DNA from: a virus
Taxonomy: Duplodnaviria; Caudoviricetes
IMG/VR virus record: IMGVR_UViG_3300030372_004742
Span: 1-33,298 of that record
Strand: one strand, 5' to 3'
Length of the DNA stretch: 33,298 bases
Shown here: piece by piece, positions 3,465 through 23,562 of the stretch
Layout of the letters: every line of letters begins with the position of its first letter
How positions within the stretch are numbered: the first letter of the stretch is position 1
Translations under genes and position numbers: made by a program
The notes under the pieces: model-generated
Database searches by the model: none
What the model was told of the DNA's origin: nothing
What the model saw: the letters and a program-made list of their open reading frames with translations, nothing else

Positions 3465-5398
3465 TAGAGCCCTCCTGTGCCTGGACCGCGACCCATCAGC
3501 GCCTCGCTTCTGCCGGTCAGGAGTCTCTCAGCCTCAGCCATAGAGCCCGCGCGCGTGGCCGCTGCGCTCTGCTCTTGGATAATCTGCTCCTGGGTGTTCG
3601 GAGACGCTGGGGCTGCCATGTTGGCCGCCATTGTTTGCGGGTTGAGGGTGGGGGGCTGAGAGCGCGGGAAGACCTTGTTCGCGCCCAGAAGGGTCCGGTA
3701 GACCTCGTCTGGTTGGCCTGCCGCCTCGATGCTGAGCAGGACATCCCTCAAATAATCCTGTCGCTCTGGTGTCAGCAGGTAGAACTCTTCTGTCTGCATA
3801 AACTCCCCAAAGACCTTACCGAAGGCCTCGAGGTCATCAGACATAAACACCTCCACTCGCGCTCCCAGCCTCGCCGCGTCCAACATGTCCTTGGCGTGAG
3901 CCATCGCCTGCACCTTCTCGCTTACAAAGGCGTTGCCGGTGCGGAAGCTCAACTCTTGCAGCGCCTGCTGCGGTGTAATCATGCCGGCCTGCACAAGCTC
4001 CATCACCTTGGCGTCTCGGTCCTGAGCCTCATCCCTGAACAGGGAGCCGGTCTCAATGAACACCTCTGGGACATCCACGATGTTGGTGCTCTGGATAGAG
4101 GCGAAGGTGACTCGCCCATACTGGTCGAGCATGCTCATCATCTTGGCCTCGGTGTAGAACTCCTTCATGAGTTCCAGAACACACCGGGCCATGGTTGCCG
4201 TGCCCTTCTCGATAGCCGCTTGGCTAATCTGAAGCTGGCTGGTGTCGTGGCTGGCCAGGGCCTGGATGGCCTTGCCGCTGGTGACGCCTACGGCTCGCTT
4301 GCCCAGGGACACCGAGTGCAGGCCCGCTACGTCGCCCATCTCCGCCTGTAGGCGCGTGATGTTATCAGCGATGTAGGACGGCAGAGGGGCTGCGGCCACC
4401 TGCTGTGGCGTGCCTCCTGCTGCGTTGTAATAGATTTTCTCACCGGGCTTGCTGGTGATGGCGTGGGTCGACACCCCAGCGGTCTTGGGCACCAGCCATT
4501 TGGGGTTGCCCATGAGCTCCACATTGTGGACGACCTGAGAGCGCGCTCGGTTGTAGAGCATCTGAAGGTCTACGAGCGGCTCAATTAGGCCCTTGCCCCA
4601 CAGACGGCGGGGAATCTCGGTGTATCGAATAATCTGGACGGGGAACGTCTTGGTAGGAATCTGCTTCTGCTTGAACAGATAGGTGCTTCCAGTGACGACC
4701 GCGTGGCGTCCATCGCGCCAGTAGATGTCGAAGACCTCAACTCGGTCCTTGGGAGGTCCTTCGTTTGGAGCGGGATTAATCTGGCCGTAGTCAGGCTCTT
4801 GTGGAGCGGGAGCGTTTTCAATCTCTTCAGCCTTGTCCGGGTAGGCCTCTTTTAAATCTTCACGGTCAACGTATGACCGGAGTCCGACCCATCGACTGTC
4901 GTCAGGATTAATGACTGAGTGCTCGAAGAAGATGTCGTAGGCTCCAACGGCCTCGGTCCTGACACACTCCATGCCTGGGTCGTAGAAGGTGTGTAGAGCC
5001 GCAGTTCCTGTAGTGAGGAGCCACTTGATGAGTTGCTCGATGGTCTCTGGCACGTCGTCTTTGTGCCAGTAATAGCGAAGGGCTGTCTCAGATGACTTCG
5101 CTTTGAGAATGTCCTCATAGGATGGGCTCGCTGGGATGACCACAACGCCGGGGTAGGCCAGGGCCAACCGGGACAAGACGTTGCGGTAGATGTTTAAAAG
5201 CAGGTTGACCGTGACTCGAGACGACCCCTCGGTCGATGTCGCGGTGACGTAGGCGGCGAGGCGCTTGTCGTATGACAGCCACTGGCGACCCTCAAGGAAC
5301 TTCAGGGACAGGTTCCATGCGCGACGCACCGCAATCTTATCGCGGCGCGAGTCGTTAATCAGGCCCTGGATGTTCTGGGGGAACTCTTTAGCCATCAA
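3464..5398 (-). CDS. Portal protein (P22-like)
   Basis: 644 aa. FLEGRQW...VNLLLN at the N-terminus, WGKGLIEPLVDLQMLYNRARSQ, GNPKWLVP, SGKAIQAL and a Q/P-rich tail. Confidence 0.85.
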   Translation of the reverse strand: MMAKEFPQNIQGLINDSRRDKIAVRRAWNLSLKFLEGRQWLSYDKRLAAYVTATSTEGSSRVTVNLLLNIYRNVLSRLALAYPGVVVIPASPSYEDILKAKSSETALRYYWHKDDVPETIEQLIKWLLTTGTAALHTFYDPGMECVRTEAVGAYDIFFEHSVINPDDSRWVGLRSYVDREDLKEAYPDKAEEIENAPAPQEPDYGQINPAPNEGPPKDRVEVFDIYWRDGRHAVVTGSTYLFKQKQIPTKTFPVQIIRYTEIPRRLWGKGLIEPLVDLQMLYNRARSQVVHNVELMGNPKWLVPKTAGVSTHAITSKPGEKIYYNAAGGTPQQVAAAPLPSYIADNITRLQAEMGDVAGLHSVSLGKRAVGVTSGKAIQALASHDTSQLQISQAAIEKGTATMARCVLELMKEFYTEAKMMSMLDQYGRVTFASIQSTNIVDVPEVFIETGSLFRDEAQDRDAKVMELVQAGMITPQQALQELSFRTGNAFVSEKVQAMAHAKDMLDAARLGARVEVFMSDDLEAFGKVFGEFMQTEEFYLLTPERQDYLRDVLLSIEAAGQPDEVYRTLLGANKVFPRSQPPTLNPQTMAANMAAPASPNTQEQIIQEQSAAATRAGSMAEAERLLTGRSEALMGRGPGTGGL

Positions 5399-14091: not shown

Positions 14092-14931
14092 CTAAAGCCC
14101 GCACATTCCCTCGCACTCGCCATTCCACAGCGAGAACATCGTTTGCTGGCCACCATCGAAGTCCACCTCATCAATCGGAATCCGAGAGCGGTGGAGGAAC
14201 GGTTCGCTCTTAACCCCGAACGCGCCCTTGTCCCGCCAAGCCGAGCGGACCATGCGCTCAAAGGCAATAATGCGCTCGCGCTCTACAGGGTCGGCCATTA
14301 ACGCCTTCCACTCAGTGTTGTCGTGGAACGGGCAATAAGAACAGGCGCTCCTTGGCGTGACCATGCCCACAGAGTCCAGATACTCAATGCAGTGGGTGCG
14401 CTTCCAGCCCATCTCAATGAGCGGGTACCTGTTGAGCTTCCACGACTCCTTGGCAGGCTTCATGCGGCTGGACTCATCGACAGAGATGCCAATCCAGACC
14501 TCGACCTGTGGCTCCGCGTATCTCTTGCGCTTGATGCCAGCCCAGCCTCTGAGGAACTGGTTGATAGGCTGTAGCTTGAACTTCAGCGTGCAGCCCCGCG
14601 ACATAGGGGCTGACCGCCCCATTCCGTCCGCCACCCAGAACGGCGGTTCGGCGTGGTTGCTCTTTTTGCCAGCGTCCACTGCGATTCTCAGGTCCTCAGA
14701 CAAGGACGTGGCCCGCGACACCACCTCAAGCTGTGCCCCGTTCTCCTCGATAACCACCCGGCACTTCTCCAGGTGGTCGTACACAGCCACTGGCTCATCA
14801 CCGGTATCTGCGAACACGTACATCTCAGGGGGTTCGCCAACAACCGACAGCAGCCGCTCATCACGGGTCGCCGCTAGTAGGGCCAGCGTCGTGCTCTGCA
14901 CCCCGGCCCCGAAGCTCATGACCTTTTTCAT
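14092..14931 (-). CDS. PAPS-reductase-like adenine nucleotide alpha-hydrolase
   Basis: Likely start ATG 14931. PP-loop SFGAGVQST, FADTGDE, CTLKFK, WIGISVDESSR, YPL, SACSYCPF and C-terminal ECEGMC. Confidence 0.85.
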   Translation of the reverse strand: MKKVMSFGAGVQSTTLALLAATRDERLLSVVGEPPEMYVFADTGDEPVAVYDHLEKCRVVIEENGAQLEVVSRATSLSEDLRIAVDAGKKSNHAEPPFWVADGMGRSAPMSRGCTLKFKLQPINQFLRGWAGIKRKRYAEPQVEVWIGISVDESSRMKPAKESWKLNRYPLIEMGWKRTHCIEYLDSVGMVTPRSACSYCPFHDNTEWKALMADPVERERIIAFERMVRSAWRDKGAFGVKSEPFLHRSRIPIDEVDFDGGQQTMFSLWNGECEGMCGL

Positions 14932-14976
14932 CTCATCCCACCCTTTGGCACACGCATTGCTACGCGCGCTCGCTTG

Positions 14977-15103
14977 AAGTATAATACTTACTAGTACTCT
15001 CCCCAGACTGACCACTCCCCCCAAGGGAGTGGGCATGTCTGGGAGTGAGAGCGTCTCTCACCGCGCATGCGTACGCGCGCCTGGGGGGCGCGCTACGATG
15101 CGC
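14977..15103. other. Cluster of palindromes and three tandem hairpins
   Basis: aagtat-a-atactt 14977-14989, tactagta 14989-14996, hairpins at 15002-15043, 15045-15061 and 15063-15103. Confidence 0.7.
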
Positions 15104-15110
15104 TGAGTCC

Positions 15111-15362
15111 TCACCCATCTGCGGTCAGTCTGGCCAACGTGGTCCCCAGGGCAGTGGCTAGCTTACGCCACACCTCAAACGAACCAATCCTGTCCCCGTT
15201 CTCCAACCTCGAGATGTGAGAGGCACCAATACCGCTCGCATCAGATAGAGCCTGCTGAGACATACCCATCTTCAACCTACGCTTCATCAACCTCTGGCCT
15301 CGAGTCACAGCAGAAGACTGCTTCTCTTGCGATATCGGGCTCGTCAACTTGAGCTCACTCAT
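15111..15362 (-). CDS. XRE/Cro-CI family HTH regulator
   Basis: RRLKMGMSQQALSDASGIGASHISRLENGDRIGS...KLATALGTT; AGGAGGT SD. Confidence 0.92.
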   Translation of the reverse strand: MSELKLTSPISQEKQSSAVTRGQRLMKRRLKMGMSQQALSDASGIGASHISRLENGDRIGSFEVWRKLATALGTTLARLTADG

Positions 15363-15382
15363 GTGTCACCTCCTGGGAGAGG

Positions 15383-15411
15383 TTGATAGTACGGTACTGA
15401 CACGCTGTCAA
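15383..15411 (-). promoter_or_regulatory. Putative leftward promoter with overlapping palindrome
   Basis: TTGACA on the - strand (15411-15406) is half of TGACA-CGC-TGTCA. The -10 is uncertain: TACTAT at 14 nt or TATCAA at 17 nt. Confidence 0.5.
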
Positions 15412-15870
15412 GAGCAAATGGGTAAGGCTGGAAATTGGTGCGCGGAAAATGGGTCTAACCCCCGCGCCGACTCGGACCGAAACTTACTTCGCTCTGGCCC
15501 CGCTCGGTCCGGCCCTCTCCCCGTGCGCCCTTCCTCTCTGTACGCACCCCGCCCACACCCCGCCGTCCAGGGTGACTGCCAGTCAGGTGGTAGACCATCC
15601 CACGTTCTGAGCACATCCCACCCACTTGGCCCTGAACCGTGGTTCGGTACAGCGTTCAGCTCTACCACCCCGCCCCCGGGGGAGGGAGGGCCGGTCGGGA
15701 GGCGAGGGGAGGGAGGGAGGCCTGACCCACCGCACGCCAACACGCGAACACGGAAGACGCACACAACACACGGCCCGCATCACGCTCGTGCACGCGCACA
15801 GGGCTCTGCCCCGTGATCCCAGGCGCACGCGACGTCGCACGCATTACACGCGCACGTTGGAGCCCTCCAC

Positions 15871-15899
15871 TTGACACCCTGTCATGGGCATGGTCCTAT
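15871..15899 (+). promoter_or_regulatory. Putative rightward early promoter with overlapping palindrome
   Basis: TTGACA 15871-15876, 17 nt spacer, TG-n-TCCTAT. TGACA-CCC-TGTCA at 15872-15884. A hairpin begins about 7 nt downstream. Confidence 0.55.
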
Positions 15900-15954
15900 G
15901 GCTTCACCGTCGGGAACCCCCGAACGGTCAACAACCCACCCGGAGAACCGACCC

Positions 15955-16167
15955 ATGCAAAACCGAAACGCCAAGTTCGCCCTCAGCGCCGCTGCAAACG
16001 CTGTCGACAGGCTCGACCGAGTCAGCGCCCTTCGCCCCGATTGCGCCGCCACTATTGAGGCATTGGGAGCCGCCCTTACCGTCGCACATGAATGCGCCAA
16101 GGACTTGGGAGACCGAGACATGGAAGGCCACTACTCGGAGCGAATTTTCGAGATGATGTTCCGCTAG
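15955..16167 (+). CDS. Early hypothetical protein
   Basis: ATG 15955 after GGAG; 70 aa, helical. Confidence 0.65.
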   Translation: MQNRNAKFALSAAANAVDRLDRVSALRPDCAATIEALGAALTVAHECAKDLGDRDMEGHYSERIFEMMFR

Positions 16168-16255
16168 GCCTCGTGCTTCGCTTCGCACAGGGGAGCCCCT
16201 CTCCCCTGTGTCCAGCGCGACACGATGTCACGCCAACAACCAAAGGGGGGCCATC

Positions 16256-16552
16256 ATGGCCAGCAAGAGCACAAAGCAGGATATCAGTTTCGGAGACGTA
16301 GACGGCTTCTCATGCGCGGCTCCGTACCGTGGCAAGGGACCTGGCTTCCAATTGCACGCTTCGATTGATGATAGCGACGATGGGCATGGGTTCCCTGTGT
16401 ATCTGGACGCCACCGCCATCATAACAGGGCCCGACGCTAGCGCCTTCGTAGACGCAATCCAGGCGCACGGAACCGAGATCTACCGCCTGCGCCGCGAGAT
16501 TGACCGGCTCAAGAGCGTGGCCAATCAAGCTCGTGCCCTACTTGGCGACTAG
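16256..16552 (+). CDS. Early hypothetical protein
   Basis: ATG 16256 after AAAGGGGGG; its stop abuts the ribozyme. Confidence 0.7.
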   Translation: MASKSTKQDISFGDVDGFSCAAPYRGKGPGFQLHASIDDSDDGHGFPVYLDATAIITGPDASAFVDAIQAHGTEIYRLRREIDRLKSVANQARALLGD

Positions 16553-16612
16553 TCGAAACGTCCAACGGGACGTCTGAGGGAGATAGCCTACCCGTACTGA
16601 AGAGACAGGCTA
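16552..16612 (+). ncRNA. Type II hammerhead ribozyme with pseudoknot
   Basis: Stem II guc/gac; GAAA 16555-16558; stem III cgucc-aacg-ggacg; GUC cleavage triplet 16572-16574; stem I ugaggg/cccgua; CUGAAGA 16597-16603; loop uagccu pairs with 3' aggcua. Confidence 0.92.
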
Positions 16613-16648
16613 AACAACCCAACAACCCAGCAAACAAGCGAGAGAATC

Positions 16649-16894
16649 ATGCGATACCCGATTGCGCCCGGACCACACACACGGGACAAGCTCGTTGCCT
16701 ATCTGAACAGGCTACAGAGCACCATCACCTTCCAGCTTGCCCAGATTACCGTCGCGTTGCGAGACGAGCGCGAGGGCCTGTTCGGGCCCAATGGACAGTG
16801 GGAGCACATCGAACGCTACGTCGCCGACCAAGGCGAACTAATGCGAGAGCTTGCCGACGTCAGAGCCGAGATTCGGCGCGTGGAGGGCTGCTAG
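16649..16894 (+). CDS. Early hypothetical coiled-coil protein
   Basis: 81 aa ORF after the ribozyme and a CA-rich leader. Confidence 0.7.
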   Translation: MRYPIAPGPHTRDKLVAYLNRLQSTITFQLAQITVALRDEREGLFGPNGQWEHIERYVADQGELMRELADVRAEIRRVEGC

Positions 16895-16895
16895 C

Positions 16896-17801
16896 ATGAA
16901 CGCACTAACGACCACACTCACGCGCACCATGGCAGTCGTCGACGCCTACCGCGTGCGAATTCGCAACGGTGAGCGATTCACCATGTCAACCCAATGCGCC
17001 ATGGTGCGCGAGGGTCGAAACCTTGACGCGGTAGCTATCCAGGCTGCGCTCATCCTAGAAGGCAAGCGCGGGGTCTTGACGACGAGACAGACGAAGCTCG
17101 ACAAGGCACAAGCAGAGACCACGGGATTCATCAACCGAGGCCTCACCTTGGCCACGTCTCGCGAGGCGTCGCCGTTCATCGGGTCCGCGTTTGATGCCTG
17201 CATCGGAGCGACCGATGCGTGTCGTCTGGCGTGCGTCGGGTCGCGTACGGGTCAAGGTCGATTGCCTAGCAGCGCAATCGCTCGCATTGGGCGCACCATC
17301 GCGCTGCACGTCGACCCGGTGACGTTCTGGGCCCGTTACGACCGCGAAGTCGAGCGAGAGCAGCGCCGCGCCGAGCGCAAGGGGTACAAACTCGCTATGC
17401 GCTGCAACGTGGCCAGCGACCATGCGCACGTTGCCGCGCGTTCTGCTGCGACACATCCAGACGTGACGCACTACGATTACACAGCCATTACGGCCAACGT
17501 GCGGCGCGTGGATGGTGTGCGCCGCGTCTACTCGCTCAAGGATGGCGCACAGCGTCGCATGCTCGCGAAGCGCATGCTCGATGAGGGTCACGGGGTCGCT
17601 GTGGTGTTCGCTGCTAGCGCACGACGAAAAGAGCCACTGCCAGCCACCTGGAATGGCGCGCCAGTCATTGACGGTGACTTGCATGACCTTTGGTTCCTGC
17701 AAGCACCTGAGTCGGGTCCGTTTGTGGTCGGCCTTCGTGTGAAGGGCGACAGCGGCCAAGTGCAAGCGGCTATCGATGCCGGGTTCGCAGTCGCTGCATA
17801 G
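16896..17801 (+). CDS. GP88-family protein
   Basis: Start ATG 16896 after GGAGG. C-x6-C-x3-C (CIGATDACRLAC), RCNVASD, HYDYT, VAVVF, LPATWNGAPVIDGDLHD, VVGLRVKG. Confidence 0.85.
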   Translation: MNALTTTLTRTMAVVDAYRVRIRNGERFTMSTQCAMVREGRNLDAVAIQAALILEGKRGVLTTRQTKLDKAQAETTGFINRGLTLATSREASPFIGSAFDACIGATDACRLACVGSRTGQGRLPSSAIARIGRTIALHVDPVTFWARYDREVEREQRRAERKGYKLAMRCNVASDHAHVAARSAATHPDVTHYDYTAITANVRRVDGVRRVYSLKDGAQRRMLAKRMLDEGHGVAVVFAASARRKEPLPATWNGAPVIDGDLHDLWFLQAPESGPFVVGLRVKGDSGQVQAAIDAGFAVAA

Positions 17802-17895
17802 CTCGCACACCGGGCGCGCGTCGGAGCTTCGGCTCTGGCGCGTCACCGGGACCGTGAGTTCCGAAACCAGTAACCACATAGGAGCCCAGAAAATG
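17800..17895 (+). repeat. Structured intergenic element, copy 1
   Basis: ctcgc-aca-ccgg...gcgtcggagc-ttcg-gctctggcgc...ccgg-gacc-gtgag followed by gaaaccagtaacca-x-a-x-agga. Confidence 0.85.
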
Positions 17896-18114
17896 AGCAG
17901 CGATATCCTTTACTTCAACTGCGACAACATCCCACACACCGAGACGGGCGCTACTATGGCGCGCATGTTCAACAGCCGAGACGCGGCTATCAAATACGCC
18001 GAACTATCGCGCCAATACATTGACAATACCGAGCGCATCAAGACGAGCAAGCGTACCGTTCGGGTTGAAGGTGCGACGCTGACCGTCTGGGTTGTGACCT
18101 GGCGAAAGCGATAG
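17893..18114 (+). CDS. Early hypothetical protein
   Basis: ATG 17893 after AGGAG; flanked by the two repeat copies. Confidence 0.7.
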   Translation: MSSDILYFNCDNIPHTETGATMARMFNSRDAAIKYAELSRQYIDNTERIKTSKRTVRVEGATLTVWVVTWRKR

Positions 18115-18212
18115 GACTCGCGCACCAGGGATGCGCCGGAGCCTTCACGGGTTCCGGCCTGACCTGGGACCGTGAGCCAGAAACCAGTAACCAAACAGGA
18201 ACCAAGACGATG
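18114..18212 (+). repeat. Structured intergenic element, copy 2
   Basis: ctcgc-gca-ccagg...gccggagcc-ttcacg-ggttccggc...cctgg-gacc-gtgag followed by gaaaccagtaacca-x-a-x-agga. Confidence 0.85.
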
Positions 18213-18515
18213 AAAATCCGAGACCTCACACACCTAATCGAGACTCTTCGCCAGGTATTCGACCACACGAGCGAGCCCTTCGAGATGACCGTCTATCACC
18301 TGGCCCCAGGCGTCACGCTTCAACGGGTCCAGAACAAAGACCTGGCATGGGAGCACCTGAACCCACAGTGCCGAGACGACTGGCAGATATGCGACCGCAC
18401 AGAGCCAGGGGTTGTGCGACGAGTCACCGTGCGAACGTCCACAGGCGAGGCCACGCTAGACACCGTCCTTGCGCAGGCCTTCAAGGCCAGCCCAGACCCA
18501 CAGAACACCCTCTAG
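18210..18515 (+). CDS. Early hypothetical protein
   Basis: 101 aa, AGGA SD inside repeat copy 2. Confidence 0.7.
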   Translation: MKIRDLTHLIETLRQVFDHTSEPFEMTVYHLAPGVTLQRVQNKDLAWEHLNPQCRDDWQICDRTEPGVVRRVTVRTSTGEATLDTVLAQAFKASPDPQNTL

Positions 18516-18595
18516 AACGCATCCTACGCCCTGAAGGCAGGGCATCCTACCAACCAACCAAGCAAAGGCCCGTACGCGGGCAGGGAGGCAGCAAG

Positions 18596-18841
18596 ATGAG
18601 CAGAACGCGGCGATACGTGAGCGAGAGCGAGGTGCGCCAGGTCGCGGACACGGTTTGCAGGTCATGCGACTTCGTGCACCGAGGCGACACGGCGAGACTG
18701 CGGGAGATTGCCCGCGATGAGTTCCGAGAGATGGGCATCGAGCCCACACCCAGCCAGGTGGGCTACGCGGTCAAGTTGGGCCGCGCATCCTACGGCGGGG
18801 TCATCCGGTCCACTAAGGCCGCAATCTACGGGGGGCGATGA
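18596..18841 (+). CDS. Early hypothetical protein
   Basis: ATG 18596 after GGGAGG. Confidence 0.65.
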   Translation: MSRTRRYVSESEVRQVADTVCRSCDFVHRGDTARLREIARDEFREMGIEPTPSQVGYAVKLGRASYGGVIRSTKAAIYGGR

Positions 18842-19056
18842 TGGCTAGGCTAAGCACAGACCGTGAGATTCTTCGCGAGCGCATCTCATGGGCAATCTAC
18901 AAGGCGACCGGGGCGAAGACGCTTATCACCACGCTAGACGCGATTATGGACGCCGTGTGTGGTCCAGAGGAGGCGCGTTGCGAGCACTCCGCGTGCAGTC
19001 AGAACTACATCGACACCGGTGACACCGCGTGCATCAAAGGGGGCAACGATGAGTAG
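18838..19056 (+). CDS. Early hypothetical protein with Cys/His cluster
   Basis: ATGA overlap with the upstream gene; CEHSAC...C may bind metal. Confidence 0.6.
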   Translation: MMARLSTDREILRERISWAIYKATGAKTLITTLDAIMDAVCGPEEARCEHSACSQNYIDTGDTACIKGGNDE

Positions 19057-19333
19057 CAACGACCTGGCACCATTGGGCTGCGTCTTCGATGGCGACAACA
19101 TACAGCGCGACGACGACGTAGCACCGGACAGCTTCAACGACATCGACGCCGTGGCTTTTTGCCTAAGCTACAAAGGGGACGTGTCTGACCTTGGAGCCAA
19201 GGACCGCAAGCACCTGTATGGGTGCGCCATTGCCACCCTGGTGGCTTGCGTGGGCTACGGGGACGATTCGCCCCACGCTCAGCAGCTCGCGTGGGACTTT
19301 CTCAATGGCCTAGAGGGGGCCGACAATGGATAG
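19049..19333 (+). CDS. Early acidic hypothetical protein
   Basis: ATG 19049 after AAGGGGG, coupled to both neighbours. Confidence 0.65.
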   Translation: MSSNDLAPLGCVFDGDNIQRDDDVAPDSFNDIDAVAFCLSYKGDVSDLGAKDRKHLYGCAIATLVACVGYGDDSPHAQQLAWDFLNGLEGADNG

Positions 19334-19529
19334 CCTCATCACAGCCCTAGCCCTGGCCCTGGCTCTGCTCTTCACGAGCAGCGGCCCTGGCCCGGTGGGC
19401 ATCATCGACCACGGGGAGGATGGGGTCTGGGCTCTGGAGTGCGTGTACCCCGACAGCATAGAGCTAATCTACATCACGGGAGACTACCGCGAGGGCGAGC
19501 GCGTGCCCTGCCCTGTCGATTTCCCTTGA
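19326..19529 (+). CDS. Small exported/membrane protein, weakly DUF3006-like
   Basis: Hydrophobic N-terminus LITALALALALLF; IIDHGEDGVWALE...REGERV. Confidence 0.55.
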   Translation: MDSLITALALALALLFTSSGPGPVGIIDHGEDGVWALECVYPDSIELIYITGDYREGERVPCPVDFP

Positions 19530-19553
19530 CACCATCTGACAACCTGGCAGAAT
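19526..19553 (+). promoter_or_regulatory. Putative second early promoter
   Basis: TTGACA 19526-19531, 16 nt spacer, TG-n-CAGAAT. Near-palindrome TGACA-ACC-TGGCA at 19537-19549. Followed by hairpin agagcg/cgctct and a CA-rich leader. Confidence 0.55.
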
Positions 19554-19613
19554 CCGTAATCACAGAGCGGTACAACGCTCTCAACCACTGACCAACCAAC
19601 CAGGAGAATTATT

Positions 19614-19814
19614 GTGGAGAATTCCACCACACCTTCACCGTCTAAGACGGTTCGACTCGCGGCTAAGATGCTGCGCACCCTGCACGCCATGACCAAGGCA
19701 GGCTGCTCGCCCTCCCAGATGGGAGAGGCGATGGGCTACGCCGCGTGCGTCGTTGCGCTGCTCACCCCTGACGAGTGGCGCGCTGCTGTCGCGCTCGCTG
19801 AAGGGGGCGAGTGA
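19614..19814 (+). CDS. Hypothetical protein
   Basis: GTG start after AGGAGA. Confidence 0.65.
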   Translation: MENSTTPSPSKTVRLAAKMLRTLHAMTKAGCSPSQMGEAMGYAACVVALLTPDEWRAAVALAEGGE

Positions 19815-20059
19815 TGCTTGGCAAGTGTGATCACAAACGAGTAGCAGAGACCGTGCTACACCGTGGCGCACGAGGCACCAGCCGCGTGTGCGTGGACGCT
19901 GACGGTGACGGGTTCAGGGTCTACGACACCTGCGACGAGAACCTGACGGAGCCCGGTGCCTCGTGGGACGAGCGCCTGGACACCCTACAGGAAGCCATGA
20001 ACAGCATGATGGTGTGCGCGTACAGCGTGCTTCACTGGGACTCCCTGGGAGGTGAGTGA
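19811..20059 (+). CDS. Hypothetical protein
   Basis: GTGA overlaps at both ends. Confidence 0.6.
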   Translation: MMLGKCDHKRVAETVLHRGARGTSRVCVDADGDGFRVYDTCDENLTEPGASWDERLDTLQEAMNSMMVCAYSVLHWDSLGGE

Positions 20060-20337
20060 TGATTAGCAAGCGTCAATGGCAACGCTGCATGGCGAAGGCC
20101 AAGAACGGCAAGACCCTGCGTGAGTCCATCAACGAGGAGCTCCAGTCCACGGACAAGACCATCAATGATTGCGGGGTGCAGTCTCTGTACGCCACGCGCA
20201 TCGATGGCACCTGGACCGTGTGCATCAACGGCACCTGGACCAGCGGCGGGTACGACGGGCTCTCTGACATCATCAGCATGATTGCCCGCACGCCTATCGC
20301 CTGGGACGAGGAGTACGACCCCAGGAAGGACGGATGA
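20056..20337 (+). CDS. Hypothetical protein
   Basis: GGAGGT SD, coupled ORF. Confidence 0.65.
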   Translation: MMISKRQWQRCMAKAKNGKTLRESINEELQSTDKTINDCGVQSLYATRIDGTWTVCINGTWTSGGYDGLSDIISMIARTPIAWDEEYDPRKDG

Positions 20338-20603
20338 GTAAGAAGGAAGAGCGAGACAAGTCTAACGCCTGCATGGACGCTATGTACGAGCAGGTTGAGG
20401 ACATGAAGTCAGCCGAGGATGCCCTCGACTACCTCATCTGGCTCGCGCTCAACGTCGTAGACAGCGAGCCCAAATGGAAAGAGCCGTGCCTCACACGGGT
20501 CTACGCAAGGGTTTTCTACAGGTTCCACAACCAGGCCTGGGATGACCACCGAGCAAACATCAGCTTCAACAGAAACATCGAACCGAAGGACTCTAAGTCA
20601 TGA
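20334..20603 (+). CDS. Hypothetical protein
   Basis: ATGA overlaps at both ends. Confidence 0.65.
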   Translation: MSKKEERDKSNACMDAMYEQVEDMKSAEDALDYLIWLALNVVDSEPKWKEPCLTRVYARVFYRFHNQAWDDHRANISFNRNIEPKDSKS

Positions 20604-21289
20604 GCATTAGCATCACCACTACCAAAAACTTTGGAACCTCGAGCCTCACAGCCCTCGTGCACGGCCCACCAGGGGCGGGCAAGACCTACGCCGCGCGCAC
20701 CTGTCCCGGCAAGACCCTCGTGGTCAGCGCCGAGGCTGGGCTGCTCTCGCTTCGAGACGTGGACCTGGACGTGGCTACTATCTCCACGTTCTCTGACCTC
20801 AAGCGCGTTTACTTCCTGCTCAACGACGAGGGCCAGCCTTACGAGTGGGTGTACATCGACTCGCTCTCTGAGGTGGCAGAGGTCTGCCTAGCTGAGGAGA
20901 TGGGCAAGACCGCGCACGGCGTGAAGGCTTACGGAGAGATGATGACTGCGGTCATGCGCCTGGTCAAAGCGTTCCGCGACCTGGACGTGAACGTCGTCTT
21001 CACTGCCAAGCAGGGCCGAGACGTGGACCCTGATGGCGTGGCCTACATGGCCCCGGAGCTGCCAGGGAAGAAGCTCAGCACCAAGCTGCCCTACGAGTTC
21101 GACTTGATTGTCGCAGCCGGCACACACACGGACTCCGATGGCAACGTCCATCGGGTGTTCCGTACCACTTCTGGTCAAGGCGTCCTCGCCAAAGACCGGT
21201 CCGGGGCACTCGCCCCACTTGAGCGCCCCAACTGGGGCCGAATTCACAGCAAGATTTCCAACTCAACCACCAATCAAACAGGAGAATAA
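20600..21289 (+). CDS. Sak4-like AAA_24 ATPase (single-strand annealing recombinase)
   Basis: Walker A HGPPGAGKT, SAEAGLLSL, Walker B VYIDSLSE, FRDLDVNVVFTA, AKDRSG; adjacent to the SSB. Confidence 0.88.
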   Translation: MSISITTTKNFGTSSLTALVHGPPGAGKTYAARTCPGKTLVVSAEAGLLSLRDVDLDVATISTFSDLKRVYFLLNDEGQPYEWVYIDSLSEVAEVCLAEEMGKTAHGVKAYGEMMTAVMRLVKAFRDLDVNVVFTAKQGRDVDPDGVAYMAPELPGKKLSTKLPYEFDLIVAAGTHTDSDGNVHRVFRTTSGQGVLAKDRSGALAPLERPNWGRIHSKISNSTTNQTGE

Positions 21290-21290
21290 G

Positions 21291-21767
21291 GTGGCAAGCA
21301 TTAACTTCAACAGCGCAGATGTTCCGCAGGACGACAGCAAAAAGTCCTTCGACCCACTGCCCTCGGGCTGGTACGTCGGGCACATCGTCGAGAGTGAACT
21401 CAAGCAGAACGCCAAGGGGACGGGCAGCTACTTGCAGTTCGTCATCGAGGTGGACACTCCGTCTCACGCTGGCCGTATGCTTTGGGCACGTCACACCTGG
21501 GAGCACCACTCCTCGCCCATCGCGGTCGAGATTGGCCACCGCCAGGTGGCGGCTCTGTGCAACGCCTGCGGTCGCCCGAACATCTCGGACACCGAGGAGC
21601 TTCACGGCACGCAGTTCCGGGTGAAGGTCAAGGAGACCCACCACGAGAAGTACGGCCCCGGCAATGACGTGGTCGACTACGGGCCGGTCAAGGGCGGTGC
21701 GTCGGTGGCTCCGACTCCCGCTGCCGCCCCGGTGTCTGTCGACAACGACGACGACATCCCCTTTTAG
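21291..21767 (+). CDS. DUF669-type single-stranded DNA-binding protein
   Basis: GTG 21291 after AGGAGA; FDPLPSGWY...GTGSYLQF...AGRMLW; acidic SSB tail DDDIPF. Confidence 0.85.
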   Translation: MASINFNSADVPQDDSKKSFDPLPSGWYVGHIVESELKQNAKGTGSYLQFVIEVDTPSHAGRMLWARHTWEHHSSPIAVEIGHRQVAALCNACGRPNISDTEELHGTQFRVKVKETHHEKYGPGNDVVDYGPVKGGASVAPTPAAAPVSVDNDDDIPF

Positions 21768-21822
21768 CCAGAACCACACCCCCACCCCCCTTAAGGGGGT
21801 GGTGGGGTGTGTGTGGTCTTGG
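21768..21822. other. Long imperfect GC-rich inverted repeat after the SSB gene
   Basis: Core ccaccccc-cttaa-gggggtgg at 21782-21802, extended by ccacac/gtgtgg arms; no U-tract. Confidence 0.65.
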
Positions 21823-21831
21823 AGGTCAGTG

Positions 21832-22263
21832 ATGGCGAACTTCATGAACTATTACGATATGCAGCAGCAGCGGCATGACATCGAGCCCGGTCACTACATT
21901 GTCGATGACGTTCACGCGTATCGGACCAGGCCCAACCGAGCCTGCATCGAGGTCACGGTTAATGAGCTCTCCGTCTACCCAGGGTTCTATTGGCGAACCC
22001 CAAGGCTCTACGCACCGCATGAGCCCCTGGTCGATGCGCTCTGGGGATTCGTCAACAGAGACAATCCAAAGGTCAAACGAGGAAGCCTCACCACCAAAGA
22101 CGCATGGGTGGTGGAGCTTGGCAAGAACGGCAAGGTGCTTGGGTTCGCACGCGCCACTGTGGTGTATGGCCTTGGTATGATGCCCTGGGTGCCACGAGGC
22201 GAGCTTCAGGACTACGACGTGTACACCGTCGAGGAGATGCGCCGTAAGGGGCACAGGTATTGA
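21832..22263 (+). CDS. Hypothetical protein
   Basis: Likely start at 21832 (or GTG 21829) after GGAGGT. Confidence 0.65.
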   Translation: MANFMNYYDMQQQRHDIEPGHYIVDDVHAYRTRPNRACIEVTVNELSVYPGFYWRTPRLYAPHEPLVDALWGFVNRDNPKVKRGSLTTKDAWVVELGKNGKVLGFARATVVYGLGMMPWVPRGELQDYDVYTVEEMRRKGHRY

Positions 22264-22478
22264 GCCGGCCTGGTGTCATCATGGACAGGGTGCTCGCTGA
22301 GCTTTACGCACAGGCCCCTGTCGGCCTCACTGTGCTAGAGATAGCGGCTGCAACGGGTGAGAGGCCCAACTCCATATGGAAATCCCTTAGAGCCCTGATT
22401 ACGGAGGGCTGGGTCACGAGACACAAGGGACCGTCACGCATAGGGCGTCGGCGGTTCATCTACCGGGTGGTTGAGTAA
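22260..22478 (+). CDS. Winged-helix DNA-binding protein
   Basis: GLTVLEIAAATGERPNSIWKSLRALITEGWVTR...RRRFIY. Confidence 0.75.
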   Translation: MSRPGVIMDRVLAELYAQAPVGLTVLEIAAATGERPNSIWKSLRALITEGWVTRHKGPSRIGRRRFIYRVVE

Positions 22479-22667
22479 GTGGACGAGCTTGTCGAAATAA
22501 CCCAAGAGATGATGGAGAGCCTTGAGGCGCTAGCCAAGTGGCGAGGCACGTCTGCTCAGGCTGCGCTTCGCATGGCTATAGACGACTGCGTTGCACGCAT
22601 GCACCAGGGCTTGGAGATGCAGGCTAGGCTGGAGAAGGAACACGAGGACCGCTACGGTCCCAGGTAG
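22479..22667 (+). CDS. Possible ribbon-helix-helix protein
   Basis: VEITQEMMESLEALAKWRGTSAQAALRMAI fits the CopG-like pattern. Confidence 0.5.
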   Translation: MDELVEITQEMMESLEALAKWRGTSAQAALRMAIDDCVARMHQGLEMQARLEKEHEDRYGPR

Positions 22668-23047
22668 TGCAGGGCCGCAACGCCAGCGGCTCCGGTCAGA
22701 ACAACACCAGCGGCAAACCACACAGCGGGGTGCTCGTACCAGCCAGGAGGGGGCACCGGGTCAGCCACGAACTCACGGAGTTTGCGCTCCAGGGCCTCGG
22801 CTCTGCGCTTCTGGATGGCCTCTCGCTCACGAAGGGCTGTCTCGGTGACGGCTGCTCGCTTGCGTGTGGCCTCGAGCCCTGCCTCGCAGGACTTGATGTC
22901 CACATCTAGGCACCGCAGCGCCTTCTTAGCAGAGGACTCGCTGACCAGGAGCCCGTCGCATGGAGCGGGTGTGCTGGTGAGCAGCGTGTGGGCCTTGGTG
23001 CAAGGGGCAGAGGTCAGCAGGGCTGCGATGAGCAGGACGGTGGTCAC
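22652..23047 (-). CDS. Exported protein with C-terminal TM helix, spanin-like
   Basis: Signal-like N-terminus, Cys residues, coiled coil, C-terminal WYEHPAVWFAAGVVLTGAAGVAAL. Confidence 0.55.
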   Translation of the reverse strand: MTTVLLIAALLTSAPCTKAHTLLTSTPAPCDGLLVSESSAKKALRCLDVDIKSCEAGLEATRKRAAVTETALREREAIQKRRAEALERKLREFVADPVPPPGWYEHPAVWFAAGVVLTGAAGVAALHYLGP

Positions 23048-23244
23048 GCGCTGCGCGAGCGTCCCGCTGCGGCCATCGCTGCCATCTTGCGCGCGCCGTA
23101 CTTCTTACGTCCGATGTGTGCAGCCAGGGCGTCAGGGTCTTTGACTCCCTTGGCCTTGAGCTTGCTGGACAGGTCCTTAAACCGGTCTCCGCTGCCCAGT
23201 GCTGCCTTGGCTGCGTCGCCTCGTGCTTTCTTCTTACCGTACAT
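23044..23244 (-). CDS. Small basic phage protein
   Basis: AGGAGG SD; RFKDLSSKLKAKGVKDPDALAAHIGRKKYG. Confidence 0.7.
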   Translation of the reverse strand: MYGKKKARGDAAKAALGSGDRFKDLSSKLKAKGVKDPDALAAHIGRKKYGARKMAAMAAAGRSRSA

Positions 23245-23253
23245 GGTGGCCTC

Positions 23254-23562
23254 CTATGCCTTCGTTCGTTTGTGCCCACCTGGCCCAGCCCACAGGGCCT
23301 TGCATGCCCAGTACCTGGCGGTCAGCTTGCTGTTGGCCGTGTCGCAGTTGTGTCGCGCCTTGAAGTTCTTACGCGCACCGGCTGAGTAGTTGTGCTTGTA
23401 GCCCTTGGCCCCGAAGCGAATGAGCTTGGTCTTGTCCCCTTCCTTGGCCATCACCACGGCTTTCTTCTTGGGGTGACCAGGGGTGAGCTTCCACTTATTG
23501 AAGCCCTTGAGCCCCAACTTCTTCATCATGCGCCGTGCGGCTTCTTGCCTTGGGTTGGCCAT
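23254..23562 (-). CDS. Conserved basic phage protein of unknown function
   Basis: KLIRFGAKG...ARKNFKARHNC...KLTARYWACKALW, a motif pattern common in aquatic viruses. Confidence 0.75.
   Translation of the reverse strand: MANPRQEAARRMMKKLGLKGFNKWKLTPGHPKKKAVVMAKEGDKTKLIRFGAKGYKHNYSAGARKNFKARHNCDTANSKLTARYWACKALWAGPGGHKRTKA

Follow-up and report, generated by a model that had tools for sequence, protein, structure and literature searches.

The window analysed here, a stretch of 33,298 bases that is the whole of one virus record (~90% complete), carries a type II hammerhead ribozyme fused to the stop codon of a small gene, and this hammerhead is probably a portable processing site that divides an early polycistronic message into separately protected units. 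The basis of this reading is what has been observed: the motif, its spacer context, the anchoring of the whole class at stop codons and the replacement of the hammerhead by a hairpin in an orthologous slot. Given that a relative has a plain hairpin in the slot of the hammerhead and that stop anchoring is common, the role is likely to be plain cutting of a long message. The ribozyme and the elements that bear on its folding are as follows.

16552-16612, + strand: type II hammerhead ribozyme with a pseudoknot between loop I and the 3' tail (descriptor, RF02276, 34-copy model)
16550-16552, + strand: TAG stop of the upstream ORF, its G being the first base of stem II (ORF list and descriptor)
16552-16554 with 16604-16606, + strand: stem II, 3 bp, open (descriptor)
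16555-16558, + strand: GAAA (descriptor)
16558-16563 with 16568-16573, + strand: stem III, 6 bp, closed by a loop (descriptor)
16574, + strand: C17, with the cut predicted between 16574 and 16575 (descriptor)
16575-16580 with 16591-16596, + strand: stem I, five of six pairs, closed by a loop (descriptor)
16577, + strand: A opposite G16594, the internal mismatch of stem I, replaced by a pairing C in close variants (4/4 runs)
16597-16603, + strand: CUGAAGA (descriptor)
16584-16589 with 16607-16612, + strand: pseudoknot of six Watson-Crick pairs in the register of the family (descriptor)
16542-16556, + strand: weak competing hairpin (predicted; -3.8 kcal/mol, probability 0.49) that occupies the 5' strand of stem II

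The initial annotation had claimed a complete set of type II core elements, and the descriptor located all of them where they had been placed, including the pseudoknot, in which every one of the six pairs is Watson-Crick, the predicted cut after 16574, which falls on C17 in the descriptor alignment, and the first G of stem II, which is indeed the G of the upstream TAG. Stem III and the triplet were also found, with the correction that the G of GUC is the last G of the stem strand 'ggacg' (16572) and not a separate base. The copy has the core CUGANGA and GAAA, an A15.1-U16.1 pair formed by A16558 and U16573, a NUH triplet that is GUC at 16572-16574, stems I and III closed by loops with stem II open, and, directly after stem II, a pairing of loop I with the tail that is at least four pairs long in the class and six here. 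The known bacterial and phage type II architecture that had been claimed thus agrees with both the descriptor and the family model, which identify a pseudoknotted hammerhead of the type already known from phages. The descriptor matched once in the window, with both strands scanned; when the window was shuffled 200 times with dinucleotides preserved, two loose matches appeared, neither with a pseudoknot of at least five pairs. No second hammerhead was found in the 33.3-kb record with the descriptor, RF02276 or the 34-copy model, and the record therefore does not show the arrangement of two or more close together that marks clustered hammerheads.

An Infernal search against the Rfam Hammerhead_II model, which had been proposed as a check, matched the full model (RF02276) at 16551-16614 with 31.6 bits (E 1.7e-4, 601 nt searched) and did not reach the gathering threshold of 37 bits, at which level Rfam gave no match. 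Searched as a single family on the genome, RF02276 returned an E value of 2.2e-6 and matched none of 14 control genomes, whereas in wider Rfam E-value scans (33 kb and 2.8 kb) the hammerhead was filtered out and the hits that remained were all chance ones. The assignment is, on these scores, one to a structural class and not to the curated Rfam membership. A family model was built from 34 other phage copies, with the window excluded, picked among the 46 of 170 descriptor matches that share spacing and pseudoknot. It scored the window hammerhead at 71.8 bits (E 1e-17), against 10.8 bits for the runner-up match in the window, and the best 21 of 27 matches in 20 held-out loci scored between 63.8 and 80.5 bits. 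Across the 34 aligned copies 96.8% of cells are paired, two-sided changes occur in 16 of 20 pairs and none of 500 shuffles scored as high, a covariation that is partly by construction given that the set was selected on stems and pseudoknot, with 20 of the 34 rows selected on a fixed pseudoknot pattern. When copies were found without the pseudoknot pattern, 17 of 35 formed at least five pairs with their own tail, whereas swapping the tails gave such pairing in 2.0 copies on average and in 6 at most. The hammerhead did not emerge from energy folding (z 0.1 to -1.1), which is no evidence of absence, given that the program cannot model the pseudoknot. At the level of sequence, the hammerhead motif is confirmed as real.

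The description of the ribozyme as intact stands for the core and needs qualifying for stem I, which is weaker than in relatives: it runs U-A, G-U, an A·G mismatch and then three G-C pairs and has an energy of only -2.6 kcal/mol. Of 46 distinct relatives, collected with stem I left unconstrained, 44 have every pair of that stem; of the other two, one carries an internal mismatch like that of the window and the other a terminal one. Position 3 of stem I is paired in all six relatives with the same 3' strand, and the four runs that all have the pairing base at 16577 represent three studies, with the runs X2, X3 and X6 showing one contig type. In the nested-structure ensemble, in which the pseudoknot cannot be scored alongside, the window hammerhead has a stem I probability of 0.01 and a stem II probability of 0.0, and the natural pairing base at 16577 raises stem I from 0.01 to 0.84. 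The mismatch is in the DNA, since one further locus (L261, which may share the sample of the window) is identical to the window. A perfect 10-base palindrome at 16546-16555 takes in both the TAG and the 5' side of stem II.

Given the stem I mismatch and the competing hairpin, the window copy may, as modelled, be slower than its relatives. This raises the possibility that it is a weakened or decaying copy, which was brought in by a recombining spacer module and cleaves slowly or not at all, the spacer serving as stop, leader and recombination joint. The rarity of the mismatch among relatives, the modelled gain of stem I with the natural base, the competing upstream hairpin and the existence of one relative that manages without a hammerhead are all consistent with decay. 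Nevertheless, this is unlikely: there is no flaw in the core, in stems II and III or in any of the six pseudoknot pairs, the score of the copy in the 34-copy model is in the middle of the family range, and in the tested type II examples described in PMC3088659 the pseudoknot forms without the rest of the ribozyme.

The genomic setting is consistent with a role in the message as a processing site. The window encodes a terminase, a P22-like portal, a major head protein, a DnaB helicase, an HTH regulator, Sak4-like and SSB proteins and an endolysin, and the hammerhead lies within a block of small + strand genes that begins near 15.9 kb, runs divergently to the HTH gene and appears to be an early operon. 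A sequencing run labelled marine metagenome (X1) contains the entire stretch and may be where it came from; no RNA run was listed as containing it, and run X11, presumed to be RNA, did not reach over the ribozyme. The relevant features of this block are listed here.

15871-15884, + strand: TTGACA with an overlapping operator-like palindrome, the likely promoter region of the early operon, with a weak -10
16165-16235, + strand: long irregular hairpin anchored at a stop, in the spacer before that of the hammerhead, with a 3' arm able to form a small hairpin instead (folding)
16256-16552, + strand: upstream ORF, 98 aa, of no Pfam or PHROG family, with relatives at 86% and 58% identity (profile search)
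16613-16648, + strand: C/A-rich leader with a GAGAG stretch resembling a ribosome site, homologous to the leader behind the hairpin of L262 and L263
16649-16894, + strand: downstream ORF, 81 aa, of no family (profile search)
16896-17801, + strand: GP88 (PF17338, E 1.3e-18; phrog_1617), its ATG one base after the preceding TAG (profile search)
17799-17862, + strand: long hairpin anchored at a stop, after GP88 and conserved in L001 (folding)
18112-18180, + strand: long hairpin anchored at a stop, a paralogue of the 17799 hairpin (74% over 99 nt; folding and alignment)

The TTGACA hexamer itself lies at 15871-15876, a site that the promoter scan did not list. The palindrome TGACA-N3-TGTCA occurs twice in the window against 0.02 copies expected, at 15398-15410, just upstream of the HTH gene, and at 15872-15884, over the TTGACA of the early block; it is also found upstream in the phage loci L001, L002, L262 and L263, and is likely, from this placement, to be the binding site of the HTH protein encoded at 15111-15362. 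The promoter and terminator scan found no + strand terminator in 15000-23500, and this, together with the identification of GP88, bears out the earlier claim that the predicted 3' product carries the 16649 ORF and GP88. TAG ends all six early ORFs up to 18515, against 10 of 39 other genes of the window chosen by hand. The best sigma-70-like promoter of the region (10/12) lies at 19526-19553, overlapping the TGA of the ORF that ends at 19529, and may from its position start a second + strand unit toward the Sak4 and SSB genes. Between the HTH gene and DnaB there is a PAPS-reductase-like gene (14092-15036, phrog_424); such genes can act in DNA modification. No relatives of the upstream or the downstream ORF were found in viral contigs, and the GP88 matches sought for host assignment reached only 31-33%. 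GP88 also contains a Cys-rich stretch near position 102-112, where three cysteines fall inside 11 residues, and which from its composition could bind metal.

The spacers on either side of the hammerhead hold a different structure. Long irregular hairpins fill the spacers after 16167, 17801 and 18114, each beginning at TAG, and further copies are present in relatives (L001 at 700, 1095 and 2103; L262 at 1452 and 1866), such that the family rests on eight copies from three phage types, all eight of which begin on the TAG of an ORF. These spacers fold at -40.6 to -48.0 kcal/mol, and the consensus of the five alignable copies has 24 pairs over 66 positions with two-sided changes in eight. Folded alone, the 3' arm forms a small hairpin in all eight copies (-4.8 to -9.2 kcal/mol; z -0.3 to -2.9, with boundaries set by eye), in which two pairs are changed on both sides in one copy. 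In size and shape the long hairpins match the T7-type intergenic irregular helix of about two turns. Neither of the Rfam E-value scans (33 kb, 2.8 kb) matched them. Searches for further copies gave candidate loci of which 17 of 18 and 8 of 9 were, on fold and context, chance matches; one viral search gave L001 alone and prokaryote genomes gave none.

The hairpin and the hammerhead share a slot. In L262 and L263 an orthologue of the upstream gene (58%) and a homologous leader (87% over 38 nt) are separated by a hairpin of this family, with no hammerhead, a swap that rests on one phage type, given that the two loci look alike. In L001, whose GP88 is 84% identical, all three spacers seen hold hairpins and none a hammerhead, and the type II hammerhead is absent at the four other GP88 loci, L002-L005. 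One of these, the more distant GP88 phage L003, has a type I hammerhead at 4141-4184 in a spacer downstream of GP88. Conversely, contigs in the runs X2, X3 and X6 have the hammerhead of the window, at 7 differences in 63 nt, with other sequence on either side, an X5 contig joins the leader straight to GP88 without the 16649 ORF, and the joints in X2, X5 and X11 leave out whole gene cassettes between spacers. To judge from these flanks, each spacer, with its stop, structure and leader, behaves as a module that can be exchanged. The spacer at 18513-18600, where two short, well conserved hairpins occur in several contigs with differing flanks, is by the same comparison another exchange point. One low-depth X5 contig has 45 letters against 14 in the window upstream of the ribozyme, which would shift the TAG out of frame, and was not counted as evidence.

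The shared slot raises the possibility that the slot hairpin is a new self-cleaving RNA that works independently of protein, in which case hammerhead and hairpin would be interchangeable ribozyme alleles. This is highly improbable. HDV-like, twister, twister-sister, pistol and hairpin-ribozyme folds were compared by eye with the spacer hairpin on their general consensus features, and none appeared to fit.

The initial annotation had inferred from the fusion of the ribozyme to the TAG that cleavage could be coupled to translation. The place of the stop was compared across the class. Stop distance was measured to G12, counting from where the closest stop that closes an ORF of at least 50 aa ends; the hammerheads used were distinct and had 280 nt or more before them, in a general set (68 copies out of 136 loci, from a scan of 2 of the 64 parts of the collection) and a subfamily set (90 copies out of 101 loci). 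In these counts, which use mechanical ORFs, include ORFs open at the locus edge and hold several copies per contig or from related phages, the stop lies at most 7 nt from G12 in 47 of 68 general and 66 of 90 subfamily copies, against 2.1% and 2.6% for random positions in the same loci, and at most 11 nt from it in 51 of 68 and 73 of 90. With a 70-aa ORF limit the stop remains within 7 nt in 37 of 68 and 54 of 90. The fused position seen in the window was found in 10 of 68 and 33 of 90 copies (random 0.3-0.4%), and 31 of 34 subfamily TAGs at that position end an ORF of at least 50 aa, against 167 of 2504 other TAGs. Spacing varies from 2 to more than 20 nt, with no stop within 20 nt in 13 of 90. 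Stop fusion is thus the commonest layout of phage type II hammerheads and not special to this copy. No paper on stop anchoring of these hammerheads was found by titles and abstract openings, and the term 'stop codon' is absent from the main text of PMC3088659 and of PMC6765202. In another locus (L198, 949-1490) three type II hammerheads lie seemingly upstream of tRNA-like sequence instead of protein genes.

It is possible from the modelled geometry that cleavage is gated by translation: a ribosome terminating at the fused TAG would hold stems II and III open, the cut would occur mainly when the upstream gene is untranslated or after release, and stop anchoring across the class would have been selected for this. 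A terminating ribosome at the TAG covers about up to 16561, and when bases up to 16561 are blocked in the model, stem III falls from 0.97 to 0.01 and stem II is lost, while the pseudoknot helix stays at 0.93. The geometry proposed in the initial annotation is supported in this respect, and both the concentration of stops in the zone covered by the ribosome (at most 11 nt) and the excess of ORF-ending TAGs at the fused position are as coupling predicts. However, the reading of the fusion as a special sign of coupling is not supported, given that it is the commonest layout, that the non-ribozyme hairpins are equally anchored (8/8) and that a close relative has a hairpin in the slot instead. Furthermore, the spacing to the stop is not fixed, and the same hammerhead is found behind other sequences. 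The ribosome would also melt the competing hairpin at 16542-16556, and therefore its effect could take either sign. Cleavage takes seconds to minutes and termination is brief by comparison. One type II construct is described as cleaving at >1.2 per min (PMC3088659). Taken together, selection of the layout for gating by the ribosome is improbable, and the processing site is preferred.

In a processing site of this kind, self-cleavage after C16574 is predicted to follow shortly on transcription of the hammerhead. From hammerhead chemistry, the last elements of the upstream product would be the stem III hairpin and, at its 3' end, a 2',3'-cyclic phosphate. The downstream product would start 74 nt ahead of the ATG at 16649 and carry a 5'-OH on a structured end; the leader from cut to next ATG has a median of 58 nt among type II copies (IQR 52-63, n=153). 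Ends with a 5'-OH slow RNase E. Both ends would be expected to protect their pieces, an outcome that would be the same as that of an RNase III-type cut in the alternative hairpin. The stop codon would be a part of the spacer module, such that the module fits behind different genes with no DNA wasted. Set against this reading are the score below the Rfam cut-off, the weak stem I (-2.6 kcal/mol) and the fact that most stops lie within the ribosome-covered zone.

A cut could also serve other ends, and gene shut-off, in which one product is destabilised and early-gene timing set, and ligation, in which spliced or circular RNA arises by joining of the cyclic-phosphate and 5'-OH ends, are both raised as possibilities in PMC3088659 and PMC6765202. 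The dependence of the effect of a 5'-OH on host nucleases speaks for such roles. Even so, these outcomes are less likely still than gating or decay: the window has a single hammerhead and therefore no second ribozyme end for a circle, both predicted products keep structured ends, and spliced or circular products were, according to the text of PMC3088659, sought and not detected.

By its alignment, the window hammerhead is of a known class and is one more among thousands, the loose type II pattern matching ~6300 viral stretches, true and chance matches together. Its interest lies in its surroundings. The natural allele pair, in which the same upstream gene and leader flank either a hammerhead or a hairpin, offers a direct swap test of the purpose of phage hammerheads, a purpose described as still undefined in a 2019 review (PMC6765202), and the finding that ~70% of phage type II hammerheads lie within 7 nt of a stop gives a basis for a clean experiment on ribosome effects.

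The closest known system is the type II hammerheads of Perreault et al. 2011 (PMC3088659, RF02276), where clustered prophage copies are reported to be self-cleaving both in vitro and in E. coli, with a proposed role in dividing transcripts into mRNAs of operon or gene length. Going by the description there, the window hammerhead shares with these the permutation, the core, the short stem II, a pseudoknot of at least four pairs after stem II, the place between small phage genes and the proposed processing of polycistronic RNA; it differs in being a single copy instead of a cluster, in the stem I mismatch and in its 31.6 bits, which lie below the Rfam cut-off. The RNase III sites of T7 (R1.1 type) offer an analogy, being structured cut elements between early genes that mature and protect the pre-mRNA, as described in PMC8708148. 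Their substrates, in the account of PMC1540722, are about two helical turns with internal loops, and single cuts leave protective 3' hairpins; the neighbouring spacer hairpins of the window are of that size and shape. However, these hairpins are very G+C-rich, and the rules given in PMC1540722 are those of the E. coli enzyme. The hammerhead, unlike a T7 site, would act free of protein and leave a 5'-OH and a cyclic phosphate rather than a 5'-phosphate and a 3'-OH. The glmS ribozyme, as presented in PMC6765202, is alike in cleaving itself within a bacterial-type mRNA, but it has another fold, is triggered by a metabolite and serves one gene, whereas the window hammerhead has no ligand domain and moves between genes.
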